DNA of 25,466 bases from a virus. Lineage: Duplodnaviria; Heunggongvirae; Uroviricota; Caudoviricetes. The position numbers and the translations under genes were made by a program. The stretch covers positions 1 to 25,466 of the IMG/VR virus record IMGVR_UViG_2671180892_000012; one strand, written 5' to 3'. The notes beneath the pieces are model-generated. The model ran no database searches and was not told where the DNA came from. It worked only from the letters and a program-made list of their open reading frames with translations. Positions 1-25,466 of the stretch are shown piece by piece. The stretch's first letter is position 1. Every line of letters starts with the position of its first letter.

Positions 1-219
1 TTACATCCACATAATTTGCTGCCCTGACGGCAACGGGTGCGGTCTTACGGCGTGGACTTCTCCCGGCTTCACGATGTATCGCTGTACCGACTCATAAGTG
101 ATGAACGTGGCGCTGCAATTCACGTTCTGACACTGGTGATAACGCTCTTTTGTCGTGTCAGTGATATAGCGGCTTGTACGCGCATGTGCGGCATGCTGGC
201 ATAAAGGACAATGAAACAT
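1..219 (-). CDS. ogr: Ogr late-gene transcriptional activator (zinc-finger), 72 aa
   Basis: Translation from ATG at 219 gives MFHCPLCQHAAHARTSRYITDTTKERYHQCQNVNCSATF..., the Cys4 zinc-finger Ogr sequence of P2; the ORF-track start at 282 is a TTG, trimmed to the ATG giving the 72-aa P2 length. Confidence 0.9.
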   Translation of the reverse strand: MFHCPLCQHAAHARTSRYITDTTKERYHQCQNVNCSATFITYESVQRYIVKPGEVHAVRPHPLPSGQQIMWM

Positions 220-300
220 CGCGAGCACCTCTTCCGGTTTTGTTGATGGTGCCATTTTAGTTAATTTATCCTTACAAAACAAATAGATAAATAAATCACA

Positions 301-1464: not shown

Positions 1465-1943
1465 TATCCCGCCCCCGTCATACCCGTGAATTTAGTCGCC
1501 ATACTGCCAGCCTTACCGATGAGCGATTCCGCCTGTTTACCGATATCGCCATAAAGCGCGGCCAGTGATTCATCAACGCGGGTGAGCGACAGCGTAAAAT
1601 CAATTTTCCGGGGTGTGCCGTCTGCAAAGAAAATACTCCCTGTTTCACTCACCCTGCTGATGACATACATGCCGTAAATCATGCCGGTGCCATCCAGCAA
1701 CGGCCACGCCCGCCCCTCCTCTGCCATCAGCCTGAGCGTGGTCATCGTCAGCTTGCCGCCGGTCAGTTCGGGATAAAGCACGCCGGCAAGCGTGATGTTT
1801 TCCTCACCCATACCGAGAAACTGAAAAGCGTCCCGTTTACCGATACGGGAATTTGACGGCCAGCGATAATCTGATTCACGCTGCATGGTCTGGTGTGGCA
1901 GCGTCTGGCGCATAAAAACAAACATACCTAACGCGAGCATCAT
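1464..1943 (-). CDS. U: Tail protein U, 159 aa
   Basis: 159-aa ORF, ATG start, synteny T-U-D, length equals P2 gpU. Confidence 0.85.
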   Translation of the reverse strand: MMLALGMFVFMRQTLPHQTMQRESDYRWPSNSRIGKRDAFQFLGMGEENITLAGVLYPELTGGKLTMTTLRLMAEEGRAWPLLDGTGMIYGMYVISRVSETGSIFFADGTPRKIDFTLSLTRVDESLAALYGDIGKQAESLIGKAGSMATKFTGMTGAG

Positions 1944-1957
1944 TTTTCGTCACCTCC

Positions 1958-4405
1958 TTAACCGTCATGCATCATGCTGGCACGGGCGCGCGCACGTTTA
2001 TCCCGCTCGTATTTTTCGAGCGCATCCTGTAACTGGCGGTCGAGCTGTGTCCCCGGCGCAGTACCACCCGTCAGGCTGATGTGATATTCGTTTTTACTCT
2101 GGTCTACATAAGAGCGGCCAGCCGGTGCCGTGACCGGCTGATAAGCCTGATAACCTGCATAAGAGCTGGTCGCCGGAATATAACCACCGCTGCCATACGT
2201 GGCGGCTTGAGTTCTGGCGGCGGTCTGGTCAAGTGTGTCTGACTCTTTGTTGATAACACCGAGTTTTTCCAGTACCCAGTCAATACCACTGCGCAGTTTG
2301 TTGAACGCATTAAGCGGCAGCATCAACGCGTCAGCCAGTGCCTGCCCGAACATGACGCCCGTGTCACGGCAACGGTTCAGGGTGTCCTGGGTGGCTTTGA
2401 CCGGGGCAATCAGGTTTTTAAACCACTGCCACGCGGCCTGTAACTTTTCACCCAGCCAGTCAAACAGCGGCTTAAGTGGCGTGAACAGTTCCCCCACCGG
2501 CGCAAATGCAGCTTTCAGCCCTTCAACCACACCGCCAAAGAATGCGCTGACAGGCTCCCAGTATTTACGGATAAGTAACGCCCCGGCGACAATGGCGGCC
2601 ACCACAGCCACAACCGGCCAGCTAATCGCCCCGATGGCCGTCATAACAGCACTGCCAACCGTCGTGAAGATTGCCCCCATTGCGCCTGCTGCCGCGATGA
2701 TGGCATTAATGCCGGTGATGACCGGCCAGGCTACAAGACCAATTGCACCGATGATACCAATAAGCGCCAGTGCGCCACCGACAATGAGGCCGATGGTTGA
2801 CGCCAGTGATTTGTTTTTCTGGATCCAGCCGTCGAGTTTTAACACATACTTTGTGGCCGTCTGCGTGAGATTACGCAGTGCGCCTTCCTGCTGGTCAAAC
2901 AGGTCAGTGCCAACAGCCTGATACGCTGACTGAAACGATTTAAAGTCGCCGCCGAGGTTATCCTGCATAACCTTAACCAGTTCTTCTGTTTTACCGTCAG
3001 ATTCTTTAATCAACCTGGTCAGATTATCCAGCTTGCCGCTGGCTGCTGCTGTCATTAATACACTTGCTGATGAGCTGGCCTCTTCGCCGAATATTGTTTT
3101 CATGTATTCAGCGCGCTGCCCTGTTCCTAGTTTATTTTTTTCAAAACTCCGCTGAATTTCTTTCAGAATTGAAAAGACAGGTCGCGTATTACCTTTGCTG
3201 TCAGTTGTCTTTACGCCAAGCTCTTTAATAGCGTCATACGCTTTCCCGGTTGGTGCCTGCAAACGACTCAGTACTGCTCGACTTCCTGTACCAGCCATAG
3301 ACCCACTGATATTTGCATCGTGTAATGCACCTAACATTGCTGCTGTTTCTTCCAGGCTGACACCTGCATCTTTTGCCACTGGCCCGACATAGGTAAGTGA
3401 ATCACTTAGTCCCTCGAATGTGGCTTGCGATTTATTCATCGTCATTGAAATAACATCAGCAATATGGGAAGCCTTATTGTCAGCAAGCCCGAATGCCGAT
3501 TTTGTCCCAATAAGTAAAGTGGCGTTTTCCTCCATCGTTTTCTTGTTTGCCAGTGACATATTCAAAATGGCCGGTGTTTGTGCCAGGATGCCATTTTTAT
3601 CCGCTCCTGATTTAGCCACGATGATTTGAGCTGCTGCTGCATCATCCGCCGAGGCGGCTGTATTGTCGCCGAGCTGGCGCGCCTGTTTGCGTAGCGCGGC
3701 CATTTCGGCGGAATCTTTTGCCACACCGAGCACGGCCTGCAATTCTGAGTTTTTCTGCGCAAACTCATAACCGGGCATCAGCAACTTAACTCCGGCCATC
3801 GTTCCCGCCGCCGCAATCCCCACACCGGCAGCGCCTACTGAGGCCATATTTCCGGCCAGTTCCTTTCCTGCCTGATAACGCTGTTTGACTGCGTTAAGTT
3901 TTGCCTGTTGTGCACTGACACGCGCCAGCGCGTCACGCTGACGGTTAAGCTGGGCGGTGGTTTCACTGATACGGTTTTTCAGCCCTCGTTCATCATGCGC
4001 CAGATTACGGGTATTAATACCCGCCTGACTCAATTCCTGACGCTGGCGCTGTACCGACAATCTCAGGCTGTTATATTTCGCCTGTAACTCAGACACATTT
4101 TTACGCGCGGCTTCCATTGCCTTTGCCTGTGCATTTGTCGGTCGTTCAGTATTTTTAAACTGGACAGCCAGAGCTGCGGCTTCCTGTCTGGCTTTTTTCA
4201 GTTCCTGACCAGTCACGGCGAGCTGTGCACTGGTCTTGCGAAATCCCTCAATACGGGATGCCTGACCGTTCAGCTCGCGCAGTGATTTTTGTGTGTCCCG
4301 GATATCCCCCGACAGCGACTTACTCGCTGTACGGATGGATTTAAACGGGCGGGATGCCTGGTCAACAGCCCTGAGCAATACCTGTAATTTTACATTGTTA
4401 CTCAT
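1958..4405 (-). CDS. T: Tail tape-measure protein T, 815 aa
   Basis: 815-aa ORF; long alpha-helical/coiled-coil N-terminal half, Gly/Ala-rich hydrophobic central segment (IGLIVGGALALIGIIGAIGLVAWPV...), position after E/E'; typical tape-measure architecture. Confidence 0.85.
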   Translation of the reverse strand: MSNNVKLQVLLRAVDQASRPFKSIRTASKSLSGDIRDTQKSLRELNGQASRIEGFRKTSAQLAVTGQELKKARQEAAALAVQFKNTERPTNAQAKAMEAARKNVSELQAKYNSLRLSVQRQRQELSQAGINTRNLAHDERGLKNRISETTAQLNRQRDALARVSAQQAKLNAVKQRYQAGKELAGNMASVGAAGVGIAAAGTMAGVKLLMPGYEFAQKNSELQAVLGVAKDSAEMAALRKQARQLGDNTAASADDAAAAQIIVAKSGADKNGILAQTPAILNMSLANKKTMEENATLLIGTKSAFGLADNKASHIADVISMTMNKSQATFEGLSDSLTYVGPVAKDAGVSLEETAAMLGALHDANISGSMAGTGSRAVLSRLQAPTGKAYDAIKELGVKTTDSKGNTRPVFSILKEIQRSFEKNKLGTGQRAEYMKTIFGEEASSSASVLMTAAASGKLDNLTRLIKESDGKTEELVKVMQDNLGGDFKSFQSAYQAVGTDLFDQQEGALRNLTQTATKYVLKLDGWIQKNKSLASTIGLIVGGALALIGIIGAIGLVAWPVITGINAIIAAAGAMGAIFTTVGSAVMTAIGAISWPVVAVVAAIVAGALLIRKYWEPVSAFFGGVVEGLKAAFAPVGELFTPLKPLFDWLGEKLQAAWQWFKNLIAPVKATQDTLNRCRDTGVMFGQALADALMLPLNAFNKLRSGIDWVLEKLGVINKESDTLDQTAARTQAATYGSGGYIPATSSYAGYQAYQPVTAPAGRSYVDQSKNEYHISLTGGTAPGTQLDRQLQDALEKYERDKRARARASMMHDG

Positions 4406-4825
4406 TCGTGTTTCCGCTTCGCCGGAGCGCCTTTTCGCGCCATGTGATGAGTTCGGTCAGGCTCATGGGATACAGTTCTGATGGCGGCCAGTGAAATACC
4501 ACTGCCACATCCGCCATCAGGTCATCGACCGAGAGATTTTTCGGAAACGTTACTGCACCGAGTTCGGCGACAAAAAACCGACCACCTTACCGGCCAGCGC
4601 CACAAGGTCAGGCAGTTCCAGCGCGGCGACTTCCTGCTCGGTCAGCATCGGTGCCGTCATGCGCGGCAGCACCTTAATCAGTGCATCGACTTCGGAGTTT
4701 GCAACCGCAGCCAGACTGACACCGCGCAGCGTCCCTGCATTGGGTTTCATCAGCGTGACCTGTTCGATAACCTGCTCACCACGTTTGACCGGATTTTCCA
4801 GGGTAATGACATTTTCTTTGTTCAT
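4398..4825 (-). CDS. E': E+E' fusion made by programmed -1 frameshift at 4571-4577, predicted 142 aa
   Basis: Minus-strand heptamer T TTT TTG (plus 4571-4577 caaaaaa) lies in the E frame at codons G-F-L; my manual -1-frame translation continues VAELGAVTFPKNLSVDDLMADVAVVFHWPPSELYPMSLTELITWREKALRRSGNTNE and stops at TAA 4398-4400, overlapping the T start; 142 aa equals P2 E+E'. Confidence 0.7.
4550..4825 (-). CDS. E: Tail assembly chaperone E, 91 aa (zero-frame product)
   Basis: 91-aa ORF with ATG start ending ...GKVVGFLSPNSVQ; sits between FII and T as in P2. Confidence 0.85.
   Translation of the reverse strand: MNKENVITLENPVKRGEQVIEQVTLMKPNAGTLRGVSLAAVANSEVDALIKVLPRMTAPMLTEQEVAALELPDLVALAGKVVGFLSPNSVQ
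4571..4577 (-). other. Slippery heptanucleotide TTTTTTG for the E/E' -1 ribosomal frameshift
   Basis: Read directly from the sequence; same heptamer and position as the P2 FETUD operon frameshift. Confidence 0.7.
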
Positions 4826-4881
4826 GGTTTTCTCACTTCTGAATCAGGGTTAACCGGTCAGCCTGGCTGACCGTATGAAAA

Positions 4882-5400
4882 TCACAGGCCGATATTACGG
4901 CGGTGTTGCTCCAGCCGGTCGACGCCGTTCACCTTCTCAATCATGTTGATGGTGTCGATTTCGACCAGCTCCTTACCGTCCATCGTCAACTTGAAATAAG
5001 TACAAATCACCGGGAGTTTCGATTCGGTATCCTCTCCCTGTTTACCCTCTCCGGTGTCGACTTCTTTCTGACGCCCACGCATAACCACTTCGACGGCCAC
5101 CGTTTCACCGGTATCGTCGCGCTGGTAAGAACCAGCAAAACGAATCGGTACGGCATCAGCACTGGTTGCAGCGTAAAGCTCCCAGATAACCGAATCCGGG
5201 AAGCCCCCGAGCGACCACTCCATTGACAGCGCGTCATCATCAAGGCCGAGGTCTACCGGTGCGCTGCCGTTCATCCCCGCACCGCGATAGTTTTCGAGCT
5301 TACGGGTCAGTTTTGGCAGCGTGACGGAATTTGCAACGCCCTGATAGCTGTAGCCGTTCAGAAAGACATTCATGTATTTGAGTTTGCGCGGCATTGCCAT
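4882..5400 (-). CDS. FII: Major tail tube protein FII, 172 aa
   Basis: 172-aa ORF, ATG start, directly downstream of FI; length equals P2 gpFII. Confidence 0.85.
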   Translation of the reverse strand: MAMPRKLKYMNVFLNGYSYQGVANSVTLPKLTRKLENYRGAGMNGSAPVDLGLDDDALSMEWSLGGFPDSVIWELYAATSADAVPIRFAGSYQRDDTGETVAVEVVMRGRQKEVDTGEGKQGEDTESKLPVICTYFKLTMDGKELVEIDTINMIEKVNGVDRLEQHRRNIGL

Positions 5401-5412
5401 CGGTCAGGCTCC

Positions 5413-6603
5413 TTAATTGCTGTTAACCGAGGTGACCAGATTTGCCAGGTATTTATCAGTAATACGCTGGCGCAGGGTCAGGTTTTCAAGAGGAGGCACC
5501 GGGGTATAGTCGTAGTCGATATACAGTTTTCCGGCCTTGAGGGTTTCCGCATCGTTGGATTCTTCACTGAACCAGCAGGTCGCATCCACGATATAGCCGT
5601 TTGTTTTCAGCTCTCGGAATTTGGCATTGATGCCGTCAACGATGTCGCGAATCAGCGTTGCGGTGATGGGCTTGTCCACCGCCCACATGTGCGCCTCAGC
5701 CATCGTGTCGGCCAGTACCTGCGCGGTGCGGGTGTAGTTTTCAAAGAGGAACAGCGGGTCATCAGAGCAGGTACGGTTACCCCAGAAGCGGAAACCGTCA
5801 CGGCGAATCAGTGTTGTGACGCCTGACTCGTTAAGCAGGTCAGCATCGGTGCCGGACTCCTGCAAATCCCAGAATACAGATGCGCTGATGCCGGTAACAC
5901 CGTTTACCCCGACGTTGGACAGCGTTTTATGCCAGCCCTGCTCATGGTCGATTCTGGCACGCAGACCCAGCGCACGGGCGGTGGCATACGCGGTAGCGGT
6001 GGTACTGGTGACCGTATCCCATGCGAGGAAATCCGGCCAGATGACCATCAGCTCACGCTGGCTGAAATTCTGACGGTAGGCTTTCACCTCGGAAATGGTT
6101 TTACAGCCCCATGCGCTGATATACCCGAAAGCGCGCAGCTTCTGACAGACTGATGCCAGTGCAACAGCCACCTCTTTGGTATCCAGCCCCGGCACACCGA
6201 GAATACGCGGTTTAACACCGGTTACCGACTCCGCCGCCAGCAGGGCTTTCAGTCCGGTGTACTGACCGTTTTCGTCGGTGGTTCCGATGATATTGGAAAC
6301 AGTCTGCGCGAGTTTCGTTTCTTCGTCTTCGCCGGTGCCGTCTTCCACACGCACGACAACGGTGACCGGTTTTGACTGGTCGGCGATAGCCTGCAACGAT
6401 GCCGCCAGCGTGCCTTTTTTACCGGCCTTTGCAATTGCGCTCTGCACATTGGTAATCAGCACCGGTTTATTGAGGGGGAAGGTTTCCGCATCCGCATCGC
6501 TGGCCGTGCAGACCATGCCAACAATGGCGGTGGATACGGTGGAAATGACGCGGGTGCCGTCGTTAATCTCCAGCACCTGCACGCCGTGATGATAGTCACT
6601 CAT
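5413..6603 (-). CDS. FI: Major tail sheath protein FI, 396 aa
   Basis: 396-aa ORF, ATG start, first gene of FI-FII-E-T-U-D operon; length equals P2 gpFI. Confidence 0.85.
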   Translation of the reverse strand: MSDYHHGVQVLEINDGTRVISTVSTAIVGMVCTASDADAETFPLNKPVLITNVQSAIAKAGKKGTLAASLQAIADQSKPVTVVVRVEDGTGEDEETKLAQTVSNIIGTTDENGQYTGLKALLAAESVTGVKPRILGVPGLDTKEVAVALASVCQKLRAFGYISAWGCKTISEVKAYRQNFSQRELMVIWPDFLAWDTVTSTTATAYATARALGLRARIDHEQGWHKTLSNVGVNGVTGISASVFWDLQESGTDADLLNESGVTTLIRRDGFRFWGNRTCSDDPLFLFENYTRTAQVLADTMAEAHMWAVDKPITATLIRDIVDGINAKFRELKTNGYIVDATCWFSEESNDAETLKAGKLYIDYDYTPVPPLENLTLRQRITDKYLANLVTSVNSN

Positions 6604-6675
6604 CCGTTTAACTCCGTGGTTAATGGGTGCAACTATTTTCTGTTGGGCAGTGCATAAGACGCTATTTGACCTGAC

Positions 6676-6693
6676 TGGTCAGTGGATGAAACA
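6676..6693 (-). promoter_or_regulatory. Candidate Ogr-dependent late promoter element upstream of FI (imperfect TGT-N12-ACA dyad)
   Basis: tggTCAGTGGATGAAaca is one mismatch from the P2 late-promoter dyad TGT-N12-ACA, centred about 80 nt upstream of the FI ATG; weak, pattern-based only. Confidence 0.3.
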
Positions 6694-6770
6694 ACAGATA
6701 AAGCCAGCGCCTTAGATTTGATGATAGGTGATGTAACCGTCTGTATATTCGAGCAAAAACTGAAATTATG

Positions 6771-6800
6771 ATGACTTTACCTTCCTTGGTTAAGTATACT
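6771..6800 (+). promoter_or_regulatory. Possible sigma70 promoter for the cargo gene (-35 ATGACT, 18-nt spacer, -10 TATACT)
   Basis: Hexamers read from sequence about 25 nt upstream of the ATG at 6825; GAGG ribosome-binding site at 6817-6820. Confidence 0.3.
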
Positions 6801-6824
6801 GTTCTTTTTTGATTGTGAGGATAT

Positions 6825-7409
6825 ATGGCACAGAATATGCCTAAAGAGCAGAGGGTTACACTCATTACGCTAGCTACTTTAACTGCAGTAGTCGCAGTCT
6901 TTTGGTTTTTGTCTATGGTGTTCGAGCATGAAATAAAATGTTTGGGCCCCTTAGTAGTTTCACTCTCAAGTGCAATACCAGTTTTTTCCTTGTGGTGGCC
7001 ATTTAAACCTAAGTACATATCCAAACGAATACGAAATACATTATCCGTTGATTTAAATATCACAAACCATGTTCTGTTTGGTGATGGAGATTACAAGTTT
7101 GACCCTTATTTTTCCACTGCGTCAAACAGAAGCCTTCATGTTATAACAAGATATTCTAATTATCTTTTGGGAGGAGCCCCCGCCTTAGAAATATATAACT
7201 TCCATGAGATTGGTGATGCAGAAGCATTCCCAATAAACAAACTTGATATAAATAACACGCCTATTGAGCAAGTGGTTATTTTGAAAAACATTCATAATAA
7301 ATACGCCTTAATAAAAATAAACTCAATTAATCAACAGCACCCTCATATTTTTGAGATCGAGTACATTCTAAACAGCGCAGGTTCTGGGAATTTTACGGAG
7401 TGCAGATAA
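6825..7409 (+). CDS. Hypothetical membrane protein (194 aa) at the P2 Z/fun cargo position, opposite strand to the late genes
   Basis: ATG with GAGG RBS; two N-terminal hydrophobic helices (VTLITLATLTAVVAVFWFLSMVF; LGPLVVSLSSAIPVFSLWWPF); visibly AT-rich compared with flanking tail genes; between G and FI, where P2 carries Z/fun. Confidence 0.6.
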   Translation: MAQNMPKEQRVTLITLATLTAVVAVFWFLSMVFEHEIKCLGPLVVSLSSAIPVFSLWWPFKPKYISKRIRNTLSVDLNITNHVLFGDGDYKFDPYFSTASNRSLHVITRYSNYLLGGAPALEIYNFHEIGDAEAFPINKLDINNTPIEQVVILKNIHNKYALIKINSINQQHPHIFEIEYILNSAGSGNFTECR

Positions 7410-7413
7410 ATAA

Positions 7414-7437
7414 ACACTTGGCTTAACAGCCAAGTGT
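7414..7437. terminator. Hairpin (9-bp stem acacttggc / gccaagtgt, 6-nt loop) after the cargo gene and after G; possible bidirectional terminator
   Basis: Inverted repeat read from sequence; T-rich tract on the minus-strand side (TTATTTAT), weaker on plus. Confidence 0.35.
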
Positions 7438-7664
7438 TGTCATGGTTCCTTACCGTAAGTTGAAACACCGAGGAGCGTTAGACGCAAGGAACATCGCTAT
7501 ATATGATAATTACCCAGAACTGATTGCTGTTTAATGTCACATTTTTTCAGAGAGGGTTCACGACTGGTCGAGTTTATAAAGACCCGCTTTTGGCACAGAG
7601 CGAACGGTCAGATTAGGCTTTACTCTGTGCCATAGATGTAATCTCACACCAGAGCTTATACAAC

Positions 7665-12714: not shown

Positions 12715-13500
12715 ATGGTCAGCTATAATGTGACTAATGTGTGGGAGCTAATCGTTTTGTATCTTTTGGTCTTTGCAGTATTAGCATTTTTTTGCTTTGG
12801 TAAAAGTAACCTTATGAGGCTTATTGCACATTATTTCAAATTTGGATATTCAGACAAAAAATTAAAAAGACTGGACCGCGAGTGGCGCGACATTCAACTA
12901 TTTAAAACACTTAACGGAATCAATGTATCAGGCATCGAAGATGTGAGAATGATACAGCAGGGGCTGATTGATGGAAAACTAAAAACATCGGATTTTTTCC
13001 TTACTCGCTTCTGGGGAGACATAACAGAACCGCTATGCATCACAAAAACAATGAGTGCAGTCCTGGCCGGAATTCTTTATATTATCTTCGCATGTTACAT
13101 ACACAATGAACAATCCGCTATAGTAAGGGATGCCATAGGTATACCATATAAAAATATGATGTACTATGTTTATAGTGACAAAGTTCTTTTATCCTTCAAA
13201 AATAAAACAGTTGAATTTAATAAAACTTATAGCCTTGCCGATTGCAAGAGTCTGCAAAACGTATTTATAAAAGACACACTTCCTGAGATCGCCTGCAATA
13301 AGCTCTTACAGCTAAACGAGGAGGACTCCGAATGGTTAAGTCAGGAGATTAAAGATAATAACAGCCACAGAAAAACATTATTAATACTATCCCTCGTCTA
13401 TTTCATTTCAGGTTTGCTTATATTCCTGTCATATACAAAATTCCTTTACGCCAATAAGAAGGTTTTAGAATACAAAGCATCAAATAAAAACCACTCATAA
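12715..13500 (+). CDS. Hypothetical polytopic membrane protein (261 aa) at the P2 orf30 cargo position
   Basis: ATG with AAGGAGAG RBS; three hydrophobic segments (LIVLYLLVFAVLAFFCF; AVLAGILYIIFACYI; LLILSLVYFISGLLIFLSY); AT-rich; opposite strand to flanking V and S; followed by a strong hairpin. Confidence 0.6.
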   Translation: MVSYNVTNVWELIVLYLLVFAVLAFFCFGKSNLMRLIAHYFKFGYSDKKLKRLDREWRDIQLFKTLNGINVSGIEDVRMIQQGLIDGKLKTSDFFLTRFWGDITEPLCITKTMSAVLAGILYIIFACYIHNEQSAIVRDAIGIPYKNMMYYVYSDKVLLSFKNKTVEFNKTYSLADCKSLQNVFIKDTLPEIACNKLLQLNEEDSEWLSQEIKDNNSHRKTLLILSLVYFISGLLIFLSYTKFLYANKKVLEYKASNKNHS

Positions 13501-15444: not shown

Positions 15445-15684
15445 TTAAGCCGGTACGCCGCCGGCGGTACGCCAGACGGTGACCAGTTTTTCCAGTGAAT
15501 GCTCACGCTGACCGTAACCGGCACCCGGCAGGGACGCCCAGATATTGCGACAGCGTGAAATGGCGCGCTCAATGCGTCCCGCCCGGATGTCATCCAGTGC
15601 ACCGCGTTCGCGGATCAACTGAATGGCGAGTCTGTCCTGTGACAACGGACTGAAATCCGGCAGGGCAAGCTGTTTGCGGTAAGG
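15445..15684 (-). pseudogene. K: 3' fragment of endolysin gene K (C-terminal ~80 codons only, no start codon)
   Basis: Open frame reads ...PYRKQLALPDFSPLSQDRLAIQLIRERGALDDIRAGRIERAISRCRNIWASLPGAGYGQREHSLEKLVTVWRTAGGVPA and is closed upstream by a stop at 15685-15687; the ORF-track M at 15645 is a TTG; the N-terminal catalytic part is absent. Confidence 0.6.
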
Positions 15685-16352
15685 TCATCAGACTGGAAAC
15701 CTCACCGGCAAAATATACCCGCCGTGGCGTGGAGGAGGATGTTTACTGGTGGGTGCCGTCCTTCAACGAGCCGACAGCCTTCACGCCCGGCTCCGTGTTT
15801 CACCTGCTGGAGCCGGATATCAATCAGGAGCTGTACGGCCTGCCGGAATATCTCAGCGCCCTTAATTCTGCCTGGCTGAATGAATCAGCCACACTGTTCC
15901 GCCGCAAGTATTACGAAAACGGCGCTCATGCCGGATACATCATGTACGTCACTGATGCCGTGCAGGATCGCAACGATATCGAAATGCTCCGCGAAAACAT
16001 GGTGAAGTCGAAAGGCCGCAACAACTTTAAAAACCTGTTTCTCTATGCACCACAGGGAAAAGCCGACGGCATTAAAATTATCCCGCTCAGTGAAGTGGCA
16101 ACGAAGGACGATTTTTTTAATATCAAAAAAGCCAGCGCCGCTGACCTGCTGGACGCGCACCGCATCCCCTTTCAGTTAATGGGCGGCAAGCCGGAGAACG
16201 TCGGGTCACTGGGCGATATTGAGAAAGTGGCAAAGGTCTTTGTCCGCAATGAGCTTATCCCGTTACAGGACAGGATTCGGGAAATAAACGGCTGGCTCGG
16301 TCAGGAGGTCATCCGCTTTAAAAACTACTCACTGGACACTGACAACGGCTGA
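15654..16352 (+). pseudogene. Q: 3' fragment of portal gene Q (about 230 C-terminal codons, no proper start)
   Basis: Frame is open from 15654; ORF-track start at 15729 is GTG; convergent with the late operon and ends about 170 nt before cos, as expected for the Q 3' end; identification as portal is from memory of P2 Q and synteny. Confidence 0.55.
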
Positions 16353-16357
16353 ACATC

Positions 16358-16379
16358 GCCGCCTGCGGGCGGCTTTTTT
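16358..16379 (+). terminator. Rho-independent terminator after the Q fragment (stem gccgcc/ggcggc, loop tgcg, then TTTTTT)
   Basis: Read directly from the sequence, immediately 3' of the Q stop. Confidence 0.5.
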
Positions 16380-16522
16380 ACACCCCCGTCATCACGCCCT
16401 CACACGCTCTCCACCGCACAAAACAGCCCGCAGGCAAACCAACGCCCCGGCGCACAATCTAAACGCTATCACGACGCGCTCAGACGCTGAAAAAATAAAA
16501 TCAGCACCACCGCCAGCGCGCA

Positions 16523-16541
16523 GTGCTTTCCCCGCCTCGCC
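16523..16541 (-). other. cos cohesive-end sequence (minus strand GGCGAGGCGGGGAAAGCAC)
   Basis: Plus strand gtgctttccccgcctcgcc is the reverse complement of the 19-nt P2 cohesive end as I remember it; located between Q and the old-position cargo, as in P2. Confidence 0.6.
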
Positions 16542-16647
16542 CGCCCGCTTCATGGGTCGGTTTTAATGCAGTTGCATAAACATAGTACAAGCGCGCCAGT
16601 CAAGCCTAGCGCACATACATAGAGAACGTATTTAAACATGCAAAATG

Positions 16648-16666
16648 ATGCACCCTATAGGTGCAT
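16648..16666 (-). terminator. Hairpin (atgcacc / ggtgcat, 5-nt loop) just downstream of the cargo operon; possible terminator
   Basis: 7-bp inverted repeat 13 nt after the stop of the 333-aa gene; minus strand continues CATTTTG. Confidence 0.3.
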
Positions 16667-16678
16667 TCATATTAAACA

Positions 16679-17680
16679 TCACCGAGCCATCTTGACTGCA
16701 TAATGAACACAAAAATAATGTTCTCCCGCATATCTAAAATGATGTTCAATTTTTCTCAAACCTATATATGGAGTCTCCACTTCTTTAATCCCAACTATCT
16801 CATGAGATTCTACACCAATATCTACCGGAGTAATCTCTTTTAGATAATCAATGTATCTCTCACACCAAGCATCAAATTTTGCGCCAGTATAATAAGCAAT
16901 TAAAAACAAGCGTTTAACATTAATAGGATTATAGTTACCAATTAGCTTTGAATAATGCTTTAATATGTTAGCTTGATCTAGAGATTTTAAAATCAATGCT
17001 TCTATTATAGCAAATAGATTTCCTTTATCTTCAATAACAAGATCTAATTCACCCGCACTTTTACCAGATTGAGACTCTCCCTCTCTAGTTTGATCTTTTA
17101 CCTCATAATTCTTAGCTAATAACATATCCCGTATAAAATCATTAAAATCATCTTCACCATATCCTTTAGCAGAGCGACGCCCCAATCTTTGAAGCACCCA
17201 AGATAAATCACTATCAAACTTTATAAAATTCAAAGGACGCTGCACTCGATCATCCTTTGATATTAAGCTTATACTATTAAGATTTAACAAATTAATCCTT
17301 TGCCTGATTAATTCATCAATATATCCAGAGTAACTATTATTATCTAACACTACGATATGCTTATCAAAAGTAGTGGCTGCATTAGCAACTGCACAAACAA
17401 CTATATCCTTAATATCCTCAGAACTATTCGGCACTGGTGTACGCAATATCTTGCCTGAAGGAGCTTTAGATAACTCAGACTCCCACTTCTTAAAAAACAA
17501 AAAAGAATCCTTGTTGTTTCCGCAAGACTTTAAATAACCTAAGCGAATTTTTCCATCAGCATCAAGAATCAACTCATTTTCACCATTAACAATGGTTTCA
17601 ATAAAAAAACCGCTAAACACTTTAACATCAGAAATATTAGCAGCAACAAATTCAGGACACAAACAAACAGCACAAAGCAT
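16679..17680 (-). CDS. Hypothetical 333-aa protein, second gene of the ATPase operon; candidate effector, family not recognised
   Basis: ATG 1 nt after the ATPase stop (translationally coupled); AT-rich; no transmembrane segments; C-terminal half has a pattern (FIRDMLLAKNYEV ... GELDLVIEDKGNLFAIIEALILK) resembling Mrr-like PD-(D/E)xK nuclease cores, unverified. Confidence 0.65.
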   Translation of the reverse strand: MLCAVCLCPEFVAANISDVKVFSGFFIETIVNGENELILDADGKIRLGYLKSCGNNKDSFLFFKKWESELSKAPSGKILRTPVPNSSEDIKDIVVCAVANAATTFDKHIVVLDNNSYSGYIDELIRQRINLLNLNSISLISKDDRVQRPLNFIKFDSDLSWVLQRLGRRSAKGYGEDDFNDFIRDMLLAKNYEVKDQTREGESQSGKSAGELDLVIEDKGNLFAIIEALILKSLDQANILKHYSKLIGNYNPINVKRLFLIAYYTGAKFDAWCERYIDYLKEITPVDIGVESHEIVGIKEVETPYIGLRKIEHHFRYAGEHYFCVHYAVKMAR

Positions 17681-17681
17681 A

Positions 17682-19349
17682 TCAATGAACTCCCTTTGAG
17701 TTCATTATTTTTTGTATCTTTAATTCCTGTATTCTAATTGTATCCTGAATCTCAACATCCATAAACTCATTTGGCCATGTGATATCTCCATCAGAATTCA
17801 CAGCCACTCTATTTAGTAAGGTTGATGTTCCCTCTTCATCTCGCTCAAGATGATAGATTGCCACATGGTCCTCAGTAAGTTCGCTTGATTCATCAACAAT
17901 TCTTAATCTAATCCGTCTAACTAATGCATCACTATGTGTTTCAATAATAAAAATTTTCTTTTCTTGCATAGATATTTTAATTAATGCGTCAGTTAACCAT
18001 GCCTGCATTTTAGGATGCAAATGTATTTCTGGTTGTTCTATTATTGTAATCGAGCCCTTTGGTGACAAATAAGCTTGAACCAAGACAGGCAACACTTGTG
18101 ATATTCCAAACCCTACATCTGTCAATTCTAAATTAACAGCATCTTGGTTTATAACTATCTTATGAATTATGTCATTAACTCTAACTATATCAACCGCTAA
18201 GTTAAATTCAGCGAGAAGAAGGTTTATGTTTTCTGTTATTTTTGTATTTTTCTTCAGAATCTCCGCCAACTCAGAGCCATCAGCAGAATTTAACTGAGCA
18301 TGATTGACTGTTTTATCTAATAAATAATAACGCTGAGGAAATGCCCTCAACGGGCTGACATGATTAACATTTTCGCCATCAAACATTTTTGAAAGCATTA
18401 ATACTCCCAGAGAAACAACATGTGACAAAAAGTTAACAACAGGGTTGTAGGAATTTCCAAAAAAAACATAAAAACCACGTCCTTCATTGACAGGGAATAG
18501 CCCCAAAGAATAAGGATTCATGATTTCTAAGATATCAGACTTACATCCTCTAAATACTTCTTGAGGGATAACATCCGACAATACAACGACATTATTCTTT
18601 TTGGGTAACAGTTCAACTATTCTTTCATCATTCTTATTTAGAAGAACAAATCTCGAAACCTTTACCACACCTTTATTTTTATCATATCTGAAGTCATAAC
18701 TTATTTTAGATGCAGACAATTTATTTCCTGAAATAGAAACAACTTTAGTTAGGCAATCTTTGATTCTCTTCAATGGGCATTCATATATAAATCTGCGTAA
18801 GTTTTCTGAGGTGGCCCGGCTAAACATAATATTATTGCCAGCATCTCTAAAAAGCATAATCAACTGGCACAATTTATCAGCAATAATATTTAATTTAGCC
18901 TCCTCAAACTCATCAAAATTAACAATGGCATTCAAAGATTCATTTATCAAATTATTGGCCTTCGCGACCAACTCATCATTATTTTTTACTGTCTGTATAG
19001 TGAATCGCATAATCATAGCAAATGATTCTAAAGTTTCTCTTCTCAGAGTATCAATGCCATTTTTAACTACGCTATTATCAGAAAAATCAAAGCTAAAGTT
19101 AAGTGTTTTGGAGTCATCTTTATTTTTTATAATATTTAATGCTTCCCCCATTCCCACTTTAGGTCCATTCAGCCGTAGAGCAGAGTCAGACAATGACATT
19201 GAATCAACTGTCTGAGAAAACATCAACAAAGAGTTAATTAGTGCACTTTTTCCACAACTATTTGCACCTAACAATATTGTCAATGGCTTTAAATCTAACT
19301 TAAAGCTTTCGTATGCTTTATAATTTTGTCCTGTAAAAGTTCTCAGCAT
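17682..19349 (-). CDS. P-loop ATPase of the OLD/ABC (AAA_15/AAA_21-like) type, 555 aa, no Toprim domain
   Basis: Walker A GANSCGKS at codons 28-35 (nt 19245-19268, checked by reverse complement); Walker B/D-loop ITIIEQPEIHLHP and H-loop IIETHS near residues 433-473; about 400-aa insert between them; AAGGAG RBS 8 nt before the ATG; AT-rich. Confidence 0.8.
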   Translation of the reverse strand: MLRTFTGQNYKAYESFKLDLKPLTILLGANSCGKSALINSLLMFSQTVDSMSLSDSALRLNGPKVGMGEALNIIKNKDDSKTLNFSFDFSDNSVVKNGIDTLRRETLESFAMIMRFTIQTVKNNDELVAKANNLINESLNAIVNFDEFEEAKLNIIADKLCQLIMLFRDAGNNIMFSRATSENLRRFIYECPLKRIKDCLTKVVSISGNKLSASKISYDFRYDKNKGVVKVSRFVLLNKNDERIVELLPKKNNVVVLSDVIPQEVFRGCKSDILEIMNPYSLGLFPVNEGRGFYVFFGNSYNPVVNFLSHVVSLGVLMLSKMFDGENVNHVSPLRAFPQRYYLLDKTVNHAQLNSADGSELAEILKKNTKITENINLLLAEFNLAVDIVRVNDIIHKIVINQDAVNLELTDVGFGISQVLPVLVQAYLSPKGSITIIEQPEIHLHPKMQAWLTDALIKISMQEKKIFIIETHSDALVRRIRLRIVDESSELTEDHVAIYHLERDEEGTSTLLNRVAVNSDGDITWPNEFMDVEIQDTIRIQELKIQKIMNSKGVH

Positions 19350-19588: not shown

Positions 19589-21859
19589 TTATACTACAAA
19601 TTCCGGCCACTCATCAGCGACCGGATACGTGAATTTTTTCCCGTCATAATTTACGGTTGCCCCACGCGCCAGCGACTCAAGCTCCCATCGCTGAGGTCTG
19701 ATACCGTTCTGAGCAAGATCAACGCGAATACGGGTAATTTGCAATCGTTCCGACCTGGTCAGCCTGGCCGATGGCGCTATTTCATGCGGTTTTAACGGGC
19801 TTCCGTTTCTTTGCTGACGATTTGGTCTTCTCAGGCCGTGTTTTAATGCCCCCCTGAGCCCCCTCACGACCTCCGGGTCATTCCATTCAATAACACCGTC
19901 ATCTACCAGATTAAGCACTGCTGCGGCGTGTTCAGAAGGCGTGGGAGCCGGTGACGAAGTATCACCACCGGTGAGCTTTCCACAGTTATTGACAGGACTC
20001 CGAGGCGCGGCGATGCCGCTTTTTAAAGTCAAAGGCTCAACGACCGGCACTTTCGGAACAATGCGCCAGTCCGTCGTTCTGGTGATATGAATATGACGCG
20101 CGCCGAGATGCGGCGCGTAAATGCCGACCACTCTCTCGACTTCTTCCTCGTACTCGTTAACGTCATCCGACGGGCTACGGGCGACCCTGACAGTCTGGCA
20201 ATCGCGCGGGACATTTGCCCCGCCCTGCGCGCTGATATACAACGCAAAATCACCACTGTCTGCAGCGGCGCGTGCAGCCTCGACGCGCTCGTCAAACTCA
20301 TCAGCAATGCTGACGCCGCGAGGCAATTTGCGTAGTTCACGGTAAGCCCCCATTGTCGGCAGACCAACCGTTTTAAATTGCGGGATGCGCCACGTTGACG
20401 CCCATGCGGTAACAGCCGCGGCAGTATCTTTCAGCGGTCTGCCGGTATCATTATCGAGCTGACCATCCAGTGCATAGCCGTCGATATTTTTTGAGATGTA
20501 TTTCGCGATATACCCCGCAGCACCGCCCCGGTTAAGATGTTTTGCCTGAAAACGGTTTCGCGCGGCTCCTCTTTCGTCTCCATCCTCTTTGAGCGCGTAG
20601 CGACGCATGATTTCAATAATCTGGTTACGCTGGCGTGGATTACAAAAAAGCATCATATGCCAGTGCGGCGTTCCGTCGTGGTGTGGCTCGACGACACGCA
20701 AACCGTAGACCTGTAAATCATTATCCTTGAATGCCGTGCGCATCAGGCTCCAGATACGGCAGAGATAACGCTGCGCATCCTTTGGATTAAATGCCTCATC
20801 GTTCCAGCCGTGATTAAGCTGCACGGTTTTACTTTCGCCTTTTCCGACCTGACGTGTCGGGTGATACTTTGACGGCGCGGTCAGCGTGATAAACATCCCC
20901 ACATCACCCTCTGCAGCGGCGTAACGCTCAATACCGGCAATGGTGTTCATCAGCTCCATCCGGCGAATTTCAGGATTAGAAATACTGCCCATCACCTTAC
21001 TGATAAGGTCGATGCGCTCGCCGGTTTCCCTGTTCTCAAGGTCACACGATTTAAGAAACTCCAGATTTGCCTGGCGGCGCGCACGCACATCACGAATGGC
21101 ATGTTTACTGGCATAAGGAGAACGGTCTTTATTGACCTCCCCGACAGCAATCAGTAACGCCTCATGCCAGCGCATACGCTGGCCTTTAAGCTGATGAGTC
21201 CACCACTCATCGTTAAACAGGCGGGCAATGGCAGAATATGCCTGCCTCGTGGTCATCTGTCCTTTACGGTATTTTTTCCAGTAGAGAGGGGAAATATTGA
21301 AAGCACGTGCAGCGCCAGCAACATGACCATAGAGGTGAGCCTGCGCCTCATCCGTAAACAGCGATTCTTTCTCGCCATGCGCATCCACCCAGGCATCGCA
21401 GAGTTCCTCATACATCATGAAAAGCTGTGATGAGATACGGGCGGCAAACTTTTTCAGCTCCTTGTCATTCATCCCCGGCAGACGCGCATACTGGTCGCGC
21501 TCTGCCAGAAACAGCAACGACGCGTCGGTGTTCATTTCATGGCGCTGATTCACGCGCTCAATGCGCGGCCATAAACGACGCTGAAAAGTGGATGTGAGGA
21601 AATAAAACCCGTGCACCGGGCTTTTATTGCGCCGGATGTAGTCATAGCGTGAAGTAAACAGCGAGCGCAAAAAGTAAGGCAGGCGGTTAATCGTGGATAA
21701 AACACCTTGCACCTGACGCATCTCGTCACGTGTAAGGGGTCTTTCGCGCCCGACGGCCTCGCGTGGCGCGTTCCATGCATAAGCACCGGTAAACGTCTTA
21801 CCGGTGCCTGCGGCAAATGCTGACGGAGGGACAAAATGCCCGGAGGCTTTAACGGCCAT
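19589..21859 (-). CDS. A: Replication initiation protein A (rolling-circle nicking endonuclease), about 756 aa
   Basis: HUH-type motif EPHHDGTPHWHMMLF and active-site tyrosine region GYIAKYISKNIDGY; ORF-track start at 21901 is TTG, the ATG at 21859 gives MAVKASG...; position after B and the small ORFs as in P2. Confidence 0.85.
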   Translation of the reverse strand: MAVKASGHFVPPSAFAAGTGKTFTGAYAWNAPREAVGRERPLTRDEMRQVQGVLSTINRLPYFLRSLFTSRYDYIRRNKSPVHGFYFLTSTFQRRLWPRIERVNQRHEMNTDASLLFLAERDQYARLPGMNDKELKKFAARISSQLFMMYEELCDAWVDAHGEKESLFTDEAQAHLYGHVAGAARAFNISPLYWKKYRKGQMTTRQAYSAIARLFNDEWWTHQLKGQRMRWHEALLIAVGEVNKDRSPYASKHAIRDVRARRQANLEFLKSCDLENRETGERIDLISKVMGSISNPEIRRMELMNTIAGIERYAAAEGDVGMFITLTAPSKYHPTRQVGKGESKTVQLNHGWNDEAFNPKDAQRYLCRIWSLMRTAFKDNDLQVYGLRVVEPHHDGTPHWHMMLFCNPRQRNQIIEIMRRYALKEDGDERGAARNRFQAKHLNRGGAAGYIAKYISKNIDGYALDGQLDNDTGRPLKDTAAAVTAWASTWRIPQFKTVGLPTMGAYRELRKLPRGVSIADEFDERVEAARAAADSGDFALYISAQGGANVPRDCQTVRVARSPSDDVNEYEEEVERVVGIYAPHLGARHIHITRTTDWRIVPKVPVVEPLTLKSGIAAPRSPVNNCGKLTGGDTSSPAPTPSEHAAAVLNLVDDGVIEWNDPEVVRGLRGALKHGLRRPNRQQRNGSPLKPHEIAPSARLTRSERLQITRIRVDLAQNGIRPQRWELESLARGATVNYDGKKFTYPVADEWPEFVV

Positions 21860-22934: not shown

Positions 22935-23435
22935 TTAATGCAGATATTGCTCTGGTTTTACCGACGTCAGAATTGTCGGTGCATACTCAAACAGACTGAA
23001 TAATTCACGTAATGCACGGAATAAAGCATCACGCCAGTAACATGATTCTTCATTAATTCGCCAGTATGGCTGGTTAAATTCTTTTTCTGTCAGTCGTGCG
23101 TGCATAAATAAAGTGCGACGCTGACTGACTGTTAAAAAACTAATATATGCATACTCACTTGCGCCAACCTGACGGCGTTTTGAGAATGCCCCACGCAATT
23201 CATCAATTGCACATACCAGTCGTTCACGTTCGACGTCGTTCATTTCTTCAAAACGCATCGTTGCGTGACGCTGTTTTAACTGCGCATGGAAGCAAACCGT
23301 TAGCCGTTCACGTTCCATCATCTGATTATAATAATCGCATGTCTCCTGCCAGCGAGGGACGGCCAGATGCTTACCAATTATCCGGCGCATAGTTGCTGGC
23401 TGTTTTTCAACGAGATTGAGCGTCATCACTGTCAT
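22935..23435 (-). CDS. B: Replication protein B (helicase-loader-like), 166 aa
   Basis: ATG at 23435 with GGAGG 8 nt upstream gives MTVMTLNLVEKQPATMRRIIGKHLAVPRWQ... and the 166-aa P2 gpB length. Confidence 0.8.
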   Translation of the reverse strand: MTVMTLNLVEKQPATMRRIIGKHLAVPRWQETCDYYNQMMERERLTVCFHAQLKQRHATMRFEEMNDVERERLVCAIDELRGAFSKRRQVGASEYAYISFLTVSQRRTLFMHARLTEKEFNQPYWRINEESCYWRDALFRALRELFSLFEYAPTILTSVKPEQYLH

Positions 23436-23668
23436 TTCCATACCCTCCGGCTTTTCAGAAAGGTCAGAGCCTTTTTTAACGGACTCTGTTTTTTGGTGCG
23501 GATAATGATTCCCTTGCGTCCCTTCCCGTGGGTGATGGTAAAGTCAATCGCCCTGGGGCTTTCGTTACGCAATAACTGAGCAATACAACGAGGCTCGTTC
23601 ATCCTTTCCACCTTAAGCCGCACGGCTATGTCTTGATTTGCTGTAACTAATGCGATTTTTCCAGTCAT
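23432..23668 (-). CDS. Small early protein, 78 aa (P2 orf78 position)
   Basis: Internal ATG at 23668 gives MTGKIALVTANQDIAVRLKVERMNEP..., 78 aa; overlaps the cox 3' end by about 55 nt, so the start is uncertain. Confidence 0.45.
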   Translation of the reverse strand: MTGKIALVTANQDIAVRLKVERMNEPRCIAQLLRNESPRAIDFTITHGKGRKGIIIRTKKQSPLKKALTFLKSRRVWK

Positions 23669-23984
23669 GCCATTCTGTCGGAGCTTCATCAACCAGTTGG
23701 GCTGCGTACTTGTCCCACTCACGGCGATTAATCCATAATTCAGCTTTCCCTCTTGGTTTTAATGGGTCTGTCATGTAGAAGGCTGGCAGCTTTCCTGCTT
23801 TAGCCATTTCAGCCACCGCGCGTGGTGTCTTACCGATGTAAAGAGCAAAACCTTCTTTCGACAGCAAATCAGATGGGCGCTCTGAAATCTGAATGCTTTT
23901 ACGTTTGGCTTCATTTTCGAAACTTGCCTCATCGCTAGTTGGACAAGAAATTTCTACATTTGTCGTCACTTTGCTATCCTCCAT
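23613..23984 (-). CDS. cox: Cox-like excisionase/transcriptional regulator, 118-123 aa
   Basis: C-terminal 80 aa show the Cox/Apl pattern (F.L.IGKTPRAVAEMAKAGKLP...MTDP...ELW); first gene leftward of the C-cox switch; the ATG at 23984 has no SD, while a GTG at 23969 follows GGAGGA by 7 nt. Confidence 0.6.
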   Translation of the reverse strand: MEDSKVTTNVEISCPTSDEASFENEAKRKSIQISERPSDLLSKEGFALYIGKTPRAVAEMAKAGKLPAFYMTDPLKPRGKAELWINRREWDKYAAQLVDEAPTEWHDWKNRISYSKSRHSRAA

Positions 23985-24077
23985 AAGATTTGCGATTCAC
24001 CAACTGGAGCCATCTAGAGCCTTTTTGAGTGAATCACAAATTGCCAAGTAGCAATATAATTGGAGATTAGCAAAATT
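23985..24077. promoter_or_regulatory. Lysis-lysogeny switch region between divergent cox and C (Pe/Pc and operators)
   Basis: Perfect -10 TATAAT at 24055-24060 upstream of C; imperfect inverted repeat ttgcgattcac (23990-24000) / gtgaatcacaa (24030-24040); divergent gene arrangement as in P2. Confidence 0.5.
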
Positions 24078-24377
24078 ATGTCAAGTGAACAAAGTGAGAA
24101 ACTAAAGCTCATCCGTGAATCCGAACGCCTTAAAACTAAGGAACTTGCTGAATTAATTGGAATTAATTACTACACATATCATGGATATGAATCAGGAAAA
24201 TCAAAAATGCCTATGGAAGCAGGTATGAAGCTGTTTAAGCATCCACGCTTTCGCAAGTATCGTGACTGGTTCATGTTTGATGAAACAGATCCAGCAGCTG
24301 GACAAATAGCCCCGGCTCTCGCACACATTGGGCAAGACTCAACAACCTTGCACCACTCAGACCAGAAGACTGGCTGA
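24078..24377 (+). CDS. C: Immunity repressor C, 99 aa
   Basis: ATG at 24078 gives a 99-aa protein whose C-terminus ...SGQIAPALAHIGQDSTTLHHSDQKTG matches my memory of P2 C; N-terminal helix-turn-helix; the ORF-track start at 24060 is 6 codons upstream. Confidence 0.8.
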   Translation: MSSEQSEKLKLIRESERLKTKELAELIGINYYTYHGYESGKSKMPMEAGMKLFKHPRFRKYRDWFMFDETDPAAGQIAPALAHIGQDSTTLHHSDQKTG

Positions 24378-24470
24378 CGATTTATTCAGCATATGTGTGT
24401 AGTAAATGTACGAAAGAAAATTGCATTAATTTTCAAGTAGTAGAAGTAAACAGCGTCATCGGAGGGCTTT

Positions 24471-25466
24471 ATGTCTATTAAAAAGCTCGATGATGGTCGT
24501 TATGAAGTGGACGTCAGACCGCAGGGTGCAGATGGAAAACGTATCAGGCGGAAATTTAAAACTAAAGGTGAAGCTCAGGCATTCGAACGTCATGTACTGG
24601 TTAACTACCACAACAAAGAGTGGTTGGAGAAACCAGCCGACCGCCGAACTCTTACAGAGTTGTTAGGTAGATGGTGGATATATCACGGAAAATCACATGA
24701 GCGTGGAGATATTGAACGGGGGCGTTTAACGACAATAATCGCCAAATTTGCAGAAATGGGAGTGTCCAGAGCTGACCAGCTAACAAAGAAAACGATAACT
24801 GATTATCGCGTTGTAATGATGAACGATGGTCTAAAACCAGCCAGCGTAAATCGACATCTGGCAATAATGAGCGGGATGTTCACCAAGTTAATTGACGCCG
24901 GTGAATACCACTCCCACAACCCGTTCCGTGAGATTAAACGGTTACGTGAAGCTGTTACGGAAATGGCTTTTTTGTCCAGTGAAGAGATTACGCGGCTGTT
25001 ATCCATGCTTGATGGTGATGAATTAAATGCAACTCTGGTCTGCCTTTCTACTGGTGGACGCTGGAGTGAAGTGTCTAATTTAAAAGCTGAACACATCATT
25101 AACCAGATGGTTACGTTTATGAAAACTAAAAACGGAAAACGCAGGACAATTCCCGTTTCGCAGGACCTGATTAAACGGATCAAGACCAAAAATTCAGGCA
25201 GGCTTTTTAATGCCAGTTACTACAAAGTGCGTAACGCTCTCAGGGAAGTAAAACCCGATTTACCTGACGGACAAGCAGTACATGTTTTGAGGCATACATT
25301 TGCCACACATTTTATAATGAATGGAGGTAACATAATCACATTGCAGCGCATCCTGGGTCATTCTAACATTCAGCAAACTATGACCTACGCACACTTTGCA
25401 CCGGATTTCTTACAAGATGCTGTGACTCTTAACCCGGTGTCAGGAATGTCCATAATGCGTCCATAA
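24471..25466 (+). CDS. int: Tyrosine integrase (P2 Int family), 331 aa
   Basis: N-terminus MSIKKLDDGRYEVDVRPQGADGKRIRRKF resembles P2 Int; catalytic HxxR (HVLRHTFATHF) and Tyr (MTYAHF) motifs; GGAGGG RBS; the stop is the last codon of the window. Confidence 0.9.
   Translation: MSIKKLDDGRYEVDVRPQGADGKRIRRKFKTKGEAQAFERHVLVNYHNKEWLEKPADRRTLTELLGRWWIYHGKSHERGDIERGRLTTIIAKFAEMGVSRADQLTKKTITDYRVVMMNDGLKPASVNRHLAIMSGMFTKLIDAGEYHSHNPFREIKRLREAVTEMAFLSSEEITRLLSMLDGDELNATLVCLSTGGRWSEVSNLKAEHIINQMVTFMKTKNGKRRTIPVSQDLIKRIKTKNSGRLFNASYYKVRNALREVKPDLPDGQAVHVLRHTFATHFIMNGGNIITLQRILGHSNIQQTMTYAHFAPDFLQDAVTLNPVSGMSIMRP

Follow-up and report, generated by a model that had tools for sequence, protein, structure and literature searches.

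The 19-nt motif that lies between the portal remnant and the cargo genes of this P2-like prophage is very probably the bona fide cos site of a P2-like prophage that suffered a recent deletion, passively inherited and competent in principle as a terminase substrate. In P2, cos is the cis-acting site where the gpM/gpP terminase binds and nicks to give 19-nt 5' cohesive ends and where packaging starts. The feature is real, correctly located and ordinary, essentially a textbook site that was already known. Existing knowledge is extended only by the hypothesis that a helper could carry remnants of this kind along.

A P2-like prophage in reverse orientation fills the window (the whole stretch of 25,466 nucleotides that was analysed), from the ogr stop to the int stop. 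BLAST against P2 (NC_001895) aligned window positions 1-6671 (ogr to FI) with P2 24254-17583, 7572-15682 (G to the endolysin remnant K') with P2 15367-7257, 15677-16541 (the portal remnant 'Q, the terminator tQ and one end of cos) with P2 862-1, 16523-16570 (the other end of cos) with P2 33593-33546, and 19599-23616 (A to cox; 96.6% nucleotide identity) with P2 30294-26277. Except in the cargo slots and a diverged C/int region, the genes are those of P2. P2 synteny within att repeats, together with the loss of essential genes, identifies the element as a defective (cryptic) P2-like prophage of the Peduoviridae.

The same element was found in two assemblies. The complete genome of E. coli N61, which was isolated from bovine mastitis in Japan (chromosome NZ_AP028880.1), differs from the window by one homopolymer indel and three mismatches, and contig LOPH01000019.1 (L041) of GCA_001576105.1 is 100% identical to the window over 18.8 kb. 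In N61 the prophage sits between pflB and pflA, with its integration site at the 5' end of pflA. The 13-bp direct repeat GTCAGTTATTGGT is the att core and is present in one copy at each prophage end, just beyond both ends of the window (L005 4675-4687 and 30358-30370). From att to att the element measures 25,683 bp, approximately 76% of the 33.6 kb of P2.

Genes for replication and lysogeny are retained. The gpA replication endonuclease (19589-21859, minus strand), B (22935-23435, minus), cox (23613-23984, minus), the C repressor (24078-24377, plus) and int (24471-25466, plus) all stand in RefSeq with no pseudogene flag, and a profile search of the early/lysogeny module (22935-25466) returned tyrosine recombinase and HTH matches. 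The nick site of the P2 origin at 29892 falls at about window 20001, inside gpA, a position given by collinearity only. By BLAST, the C region had no nucleotide match to P2 and int was approximately 66-70% identical. This divergence of the C/int region suggests an immunity different from that of P2; P2 itself would thus probably be heteroimmune.

The initial annotation had taken the motif to be the reverse complement of the P2 cohesive end, and this identification proved exact, with no observation speaking against it. The 19-mer GGCGAGGCGGGGAAAGCAC occurs once in the window, at 16523-16541 on the minus strand with 0 mismatches, and is identical to the annotated cosL (1-19) and cosR of P2 NC_001895. 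It also forms the first 19 nt of P4, while the cohesive end of 186 differs at 2 positions. Many linear Peduovirus records have as their first base the equivalent of window 16541, and in fiAA91-ss cosL is annotated there. That the motif is a chance match in GC-rich sequence, or that an assembly artefact mimics the adjoining deletion, seems scarcely credible: only the GC richness of the tract speaks for it, whereas no match to GGCGAGGCGGGGAAAGCAC with 3 or fewer mismatches arose in 100 dinucleotide-preserving shuffles, identity to P2 of approximately 95% extends over 865 bp and ends exactly at the cos end, and the deletion junction recurs in two assemblies made independently, one a draft from 2016 and the other a complete genome.

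The surroundings of the motif were also as first described, a GC-rich tract running from the Q terminator to an AT-rich cargo operon. The portal ORF stops at 16352, and directly beyond it lies tQ, the rho-independent terminator of the P-Q operon (16358-16379, plus strand; GCCGCC-TGCG-GGCGGC followed by T6). In a terminator scan, its stem (16358-16373) and T-run matched the tQ annotated in P2 at 160-181. At the 3' end of the cargo operon the scan gave a terminator-like hairpin with a T-rich tail (16640-16666, minus strand; stem 16666-16648). Cargo transcription, judged by ORF orientation, points at cos, so that cos is situated between two convergent terminators. The GC content of the tract at 16353-16560 was 62.5%, compared with 33% across the cargo genes at 16679-19349. 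The location is canonical: downstream of the portal terminator tQ and beside the variable slot before gpA. In P2, cos occupies the same place, between tQ and the old/tin slot, and the Q-side flank of the window is approximately 95% identical to it. The cargo of the window, in contrast, is unlike old/tin and is transcribed towards cos, whereas that of P2 is transcribed away from it.

Small hairpins with T-rich runs flank the 19-nt end and point outward (16504-16519, minus strand; 16543-16557, plus strand; terminator scan). Hairpin-bearing flanks of cos are conserved in P2-like phages and are candidate terminase-recognition elements or transcription insulators. In addition, three independent short-read contigs (L043, L045 and L046) stop at window 16521-16525, the Q-side edge of cos. 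Most likely those genomes have further copies of the cos core, in P4-like satellites, that break up the assembly graph; genuine cohesive ends of induced phage are another possible cause.

P2 and P4 share only a conserved core of approximately 55 bp around the cos ends (PMC9594776; PMC9122126). An alignment of P2, P4, 186 and the window placed this core at 16516-16570 on the minus strand, where the 19-nt end is flanked by 29 nt towards the cargo and 7 nt towards Q. The positions required for cos function were judged by conservation and by identity to the cos of intact prophages. The window core was identical to that of P2 at 53 of 55 positions and differed by C to A at -16 and by G to A at -12.

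These two substitutions, with several others outside the core, could be taken to mean that the 19-mer survives in a decayed, non-functional relic whose flanking terminase-recognition sequence is damaged, and flank length is known to alter strongly the transduction efficiency of cos plasmids (PMC9594776). Such decay is nevertheless highly improbable. Both -16A and -12A are found in 186 and in Yersinia phage GMS190, and -12A is found also in phages 9W and vB_YpM_50 (YpM_50), all of them plaque-forming phages; the Q-side substitutions at +10, +25 and +42 are common to the 186, GMS190, 9W and YpM_50 isolates. The exact 55-mer was present in 24 IMG/VR contigs, and full-length Q and P adjoin it wherever the flank suffices. 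Over a wider cos region of 239 bp (16440-16678) the window agrees base for base with sibling prophages whose head and packaging module is complete: the exact segment is present in L040 and L044, both with intact Q, P, O, N, M, L, X, Y and K, and sibling E308 is identical to the window over 16468-16678. The description of cos as intact was thus upheld, in that comparison with P2, 186 and intact siblings revealed no position unlike those of functional phages. As judged from these alignments, the feature is a genuine, undamaged P2-type cos site. Being a cis-acting site with an undamaged sequence, it would be a competent substrate in principle for terminase supplied in trans, and it should still be cleavable by a P2-family terminase provided in this way.

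The packaging genes, which had been reported as lost, are indeed gone. BLAST against P2 and against the intact sibling E308 showed that P2 863-7256 (6.4 kb) is absent from the window, where position 15677 corresponds to P2 862 (inside Q) and position 15682 to P2 7257 (inside K). At the junction (15677-15682) both alignments include the 6-bp microhomology GCGGTA, an overlap that points to a single microhomology-mediated deletion. Portal (Q) residues 1-120, P (TerL), O (scaffold), N (capsid) and M (TerS) were removed, along with L (head completion), the essential tail gene X, the holin gene Y and codons 1-87 of K. According to the P2 gene map, the divergent pO/pP promoters were also taken; with pO lost, lysA, lysB, lysC, R and S would have no late promoter. 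The element cannot package its own DNA; X, Y, the R/S promoter and a complete K are missing as well. We considered a tailocin, given that the tail is kept and the head lost, and rejected it: the deletion took X, Y and part of K, and left R and S without pO.

What remains on either side of the junction shows little wear. The portal pseudogene 'Q (15678-16352, plus strand) comprises residues 121-344 only and is listed in RefSeq as incomplete, with its N-terminus missing; 222 of 223 residues are identical to P2 gpQ 121-343, with no further lesions or stops. The endolysin remnant K' (15445-15682, minus strand), the C-terminal part of the gene, is collinear with P2 7257-7494 and appears in RefSeq as an incomplete lysozyme family protein. 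The 99% identity of 'Q to gpQ, the full-length FI and the absence of pseudogene flags on the other genes all show that the deletion is recent.

The proposed course of events is simple. A P2-like (Peduovirus) prophage integrated in the 5' end of pflA with cos in its normal place, one recent microhomology-mediated deletion of 6.4 kb removed the head and packaging genes, and cos would have survived by passive inheritance, the deletion having stopped 862 bp short of it. A random 6.4-kb deletion in a prophage of approximately 32 kb would, by arithmetic, remove a 55-bp site approximately 20% of the time. With a chance of loss of about one in five and a deletion that ended 862 bp away, retention of cos needs no special explanation, and we infer that it was neutral. 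The initial annotation had spoken of cos as retained despite the loss of the packaging genes, a wording that implies selection; we do not adopt it, since a single recent deletion 862 bp from cos fits passive retention.

Head-module deletions are common and heterogeneous among P2-like prophages. Other, independent deletions of this kind keep 'Q and cos and have different end-points, all of them having been found through Q-cos or cos-core queries. Strain 3908 (L007) lacks P2 755-7338, the BA22372 group (L006) lacks 1048-7484, and further cases are MFDS1001074, 1435, PSJ-12 and the IMG/VR records L034 and L036. That every head-module deletion seen keeps cos counts against purely passive retention, in a set that is biased by the Q-cos and cos-core queries. 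Recurrent deletion was rejected as proof of selection on cos for that same reason, every case having been recovered with one of these queries. The BA22372-type remnant is common to many human clinical isolates and is heavily degraded, with truncated A, V and sheath genes, so that it could not replicate as a phage; cos persists in it, which indicates that cos can survive without plausible mobility. In a rank-spread sample of 60 from 2,267 records that matched P-Q-cos, 4 kept the cos-proximal part only and 14 the cos core alone. Matches to the cos core alone are the pattern expected of P4-like satellites.

The junction of the deleted form was present in 1 of 5,426 complete E. coli genomes, that of N61. 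Among assemblies that encode the identical 333-aa cargo protein it was found only in GCA_001576105.1, and the intact form was commoner. The latter assembly and N61 both carry the element at pflA, and 2,214 bp of chromosomal flank are identical between them. The deleted form therefore looks like one clonal lineage at one site. There was no trace of horizontal spread, the junction being found only in these two assemblies and at the same site.

Intact relatives occupy this site as well. Siblings at pflA (E. coli E308, GCA_018683135.1 and others) share the integration site, the cargo proteins and an identical cos segment, and are 98-99% identical to the window over the early region; unlike the window, they keep the 6.4 kb with Q, P, O, N, M, L, X, Y and K. 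Some of them have a different C/cox immunity module. Comparison of L040 and L043 with window 23600-24400 showed such a module in a sibling with the same cargo protein and cos: C is 103 aa and cox 118 aa, compared with 99 and 123 aa in the window. These differences indicate that the immunity region is exchanged as a module between otherwise near-identical prophages.

The initial annotation had gone on to propose that a co-resident or superinfecting P2-like helper could package and mobilise the element. The mechanistic part of this proposal stands, for cos, att, int, cox, A and B are all kept; the co-resident helper does not, as none was found on the N61 chromosome. Copy number in N61 was estimated with chimeric queries that joined an N61-specific cargo anchor to a probe, covering the chromosome at the level of megablast-detectable similarity. 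The counts were one place for TerL, one for Q and three for cos, and two places for P4 sid-delta-psu besides the anchor. At this level of similarity the chromosome had no P2-type large terminase outside the deleted element and no second portal (Q) sequence, and no prophage was found in N61 1-50,000. N61 thus has two further P2/P4-type cos sites and two P4 sid-delta-psu loci in addition to the head-less prophage; its complement is one head-less P2 and two P4-like satellites, each with its own cos. With no P2-type terminase or portal found elsewhere on the chromosome, all three cos elements are stranded unless a P2-like phage comes in.

We regard it as unlikely that the head-less element is a helper-dependent, satellite-like mobile element. 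Were it so, a superinfecting P2-like phage would supply terminase, capsid, X and lysis functions, the resident would excise by its own Int and Cox and might replicate from its own origin, the helper terminase would cut cos, and the 25.7-kb genome with its cargo would fill a P2-size head and lysogenise at pflA. The parts for such a cycle are present: cos is intact, the att core GTCAGTTATTGGT stands at both ends, the A region with P2's origin is kept, int, cox, C, B and A are free of pseudogene flags, and the heteroimmunity that is probable for P2 would favour the scheme. Published work gives further grounds. Plasmids that carry cos are packaged in trans by P2 functions, so that cos is sufficient in cis (PMC9942202; PMC9594776), and a P2 prophage from which cos had been deleted, and whose genome had been enlarged as well, gave no P2 progeny (PMC9942202). 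P2-size heads can hold multimeric P4 DNA (PMC6893505), and defective prophages have been packaged and transferred through prophage-prophage interactions (PMC2669165).

Against mobilisation stand, besides the empty helper niche on the N61 chromosome and the restriction of the deleted form to one clonal lineage at one site, several demands on the helper. It would have to derepress and excise the resident, and no mechanism was identified for either step. P2 prophages cannot be induced, and because monomeric circles are the preferred substrate of P2 terminase, it would not use a chromosomal cos. The two P4-like satellites already in the strain would be rivals for the helper, any satellite Sid would shrink capsids below 25.7 kb, and either the cargo or the immunity of the resident might keep the helper out. 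Moreover, cos packagers are size-constrained (PMC6893505), and the genome here is 76% of P2 length.

Comparison with known satellites and defective prophages shows where the element would fit. Like a satellite, it pairs a packaging signal compatible with a helper with genes of its own for integration and replication (cos, int, cox, A and B). Dedicated functions for exploiting a helper, such as helper-sensing derepression, late-gene transactivation beyond that of the phage itself or capsid-size redirection, were not found in its gene content; the P4 sid-delta-psu sequences of N61 lie elsewhere on the chromosome. The same cos is found in P4-like satellites and engineered P2/P4 cosmids, which need helper terminase and capsid in trans. 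P4, however, is an evolved lineage in which sid, psu, delta and epsilon hijack the helper, and its 11.6-kb genome fits a capsid of redirected size, unlike the window element, which has none of these genes (no P4 sid, psu or epsilon-like gene was found within it). The window element is instead a one-step deletion derivative of its own would-be helper, with nearly all tail genes kept. Persistence across hosts or sites, another mark of satellites, was not seen, given that the junction was confined to N61 and GCA_001576105.1. The defective prophages of E. coli O157 Sakai embody the same concept of borrowed excision, packaging and transfer (Asadulghani et al. 2009, PMC2669165); they are mainly lambdoid and their transfer was shown experimentally, whereas that of the window element is hypothetical.

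A bolder extension casts P2-like prophages that have lost the head but still have cos, att/int/cox and A/B/ori as nascent satellites that arose from their own helper and were selected as such: recurrent deletions that spare cos would no longer kill the host, and the products would hitch-hike with incoming P2-like phages and spread defence cargo. We consider this improbable. Should helpers indeed package such remnants, cos-adjacent defence genes would have a mobile reservoir in defective P2 prophages, which would then not be dead ends and would illustrate one way in which a helper could give rise to its own satellite. On present evidence, the gain is mainly one of correct annotation: the cos is canonical, the deletion is dated, and the prophage is unable to make particles alone.

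The cargo beside cos is an AT-rich pair of genes in the old/tin slot (16679-19349, minus strand), where it replaces old and tin of P2. A 555-aa ABC-type ATPase (17682-19349, minus) matched Pfam AAA_15/AAA_21, and its best PADLOC matches were NsnB, HEC-03B, PDC-M55A and an AriA-like model. Its 333-aa partner (16679-17680, minus) had no family match, with nothing in Pfam, NCBIfam or PADLOC. The cargo was present in 6 of the 5,426 complete E. coli genomes. We consider the pair a candidate two-gene defence system, and not a named one. A cos-adjacent defence hotspot of P2-like prophages has already been published (Rousset et al. 2022, PMC9122126), as have defective P2 prophages with intact defence genes (NAR 2026, PMC13586616). 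As in the published hotspot, variable AT-rich cargo lies in the window between gpA and cos/gpQ; the difference is that, while the ATPase matches defence-associated models, this two-gene cargo is unnamed and its defence role putative.

Other variable slots were noted along the element. The Z/fun slot of P2 (window 6672-7571) holds unrelated AT-rich DNA, including a 194-aa ORF (6825-7409, plus strand) with no family match. The orf30 slot (12715-13500) contains a 261-aa ORF without a family match, in surroundings that are approximately 97% identical to P2. An Rfam scan of the window returned no family.

Two observations concern the prophage as it stands in N61. The att core GTCAGTTATTGGT overlaps the region of the pflA start codon, and the prophage provides new sequence upstream; with this prophage-supplied sequence, pflA is annotated with a longer N-terminus, as a protein of 265 aa. 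In the FI sheath gene (minus strand), window 6415-6421 reads T6, compared with T7 in RefSeq N61, and it is the T7 homopolymer that makes the RefSeq sheath gene "frameshifted". The window FI ORF spans the full length of the gene, with 98% identity to P2 FI, and the homopolymer difference is either a homopolymer sequencing error or a true difference between isolates.
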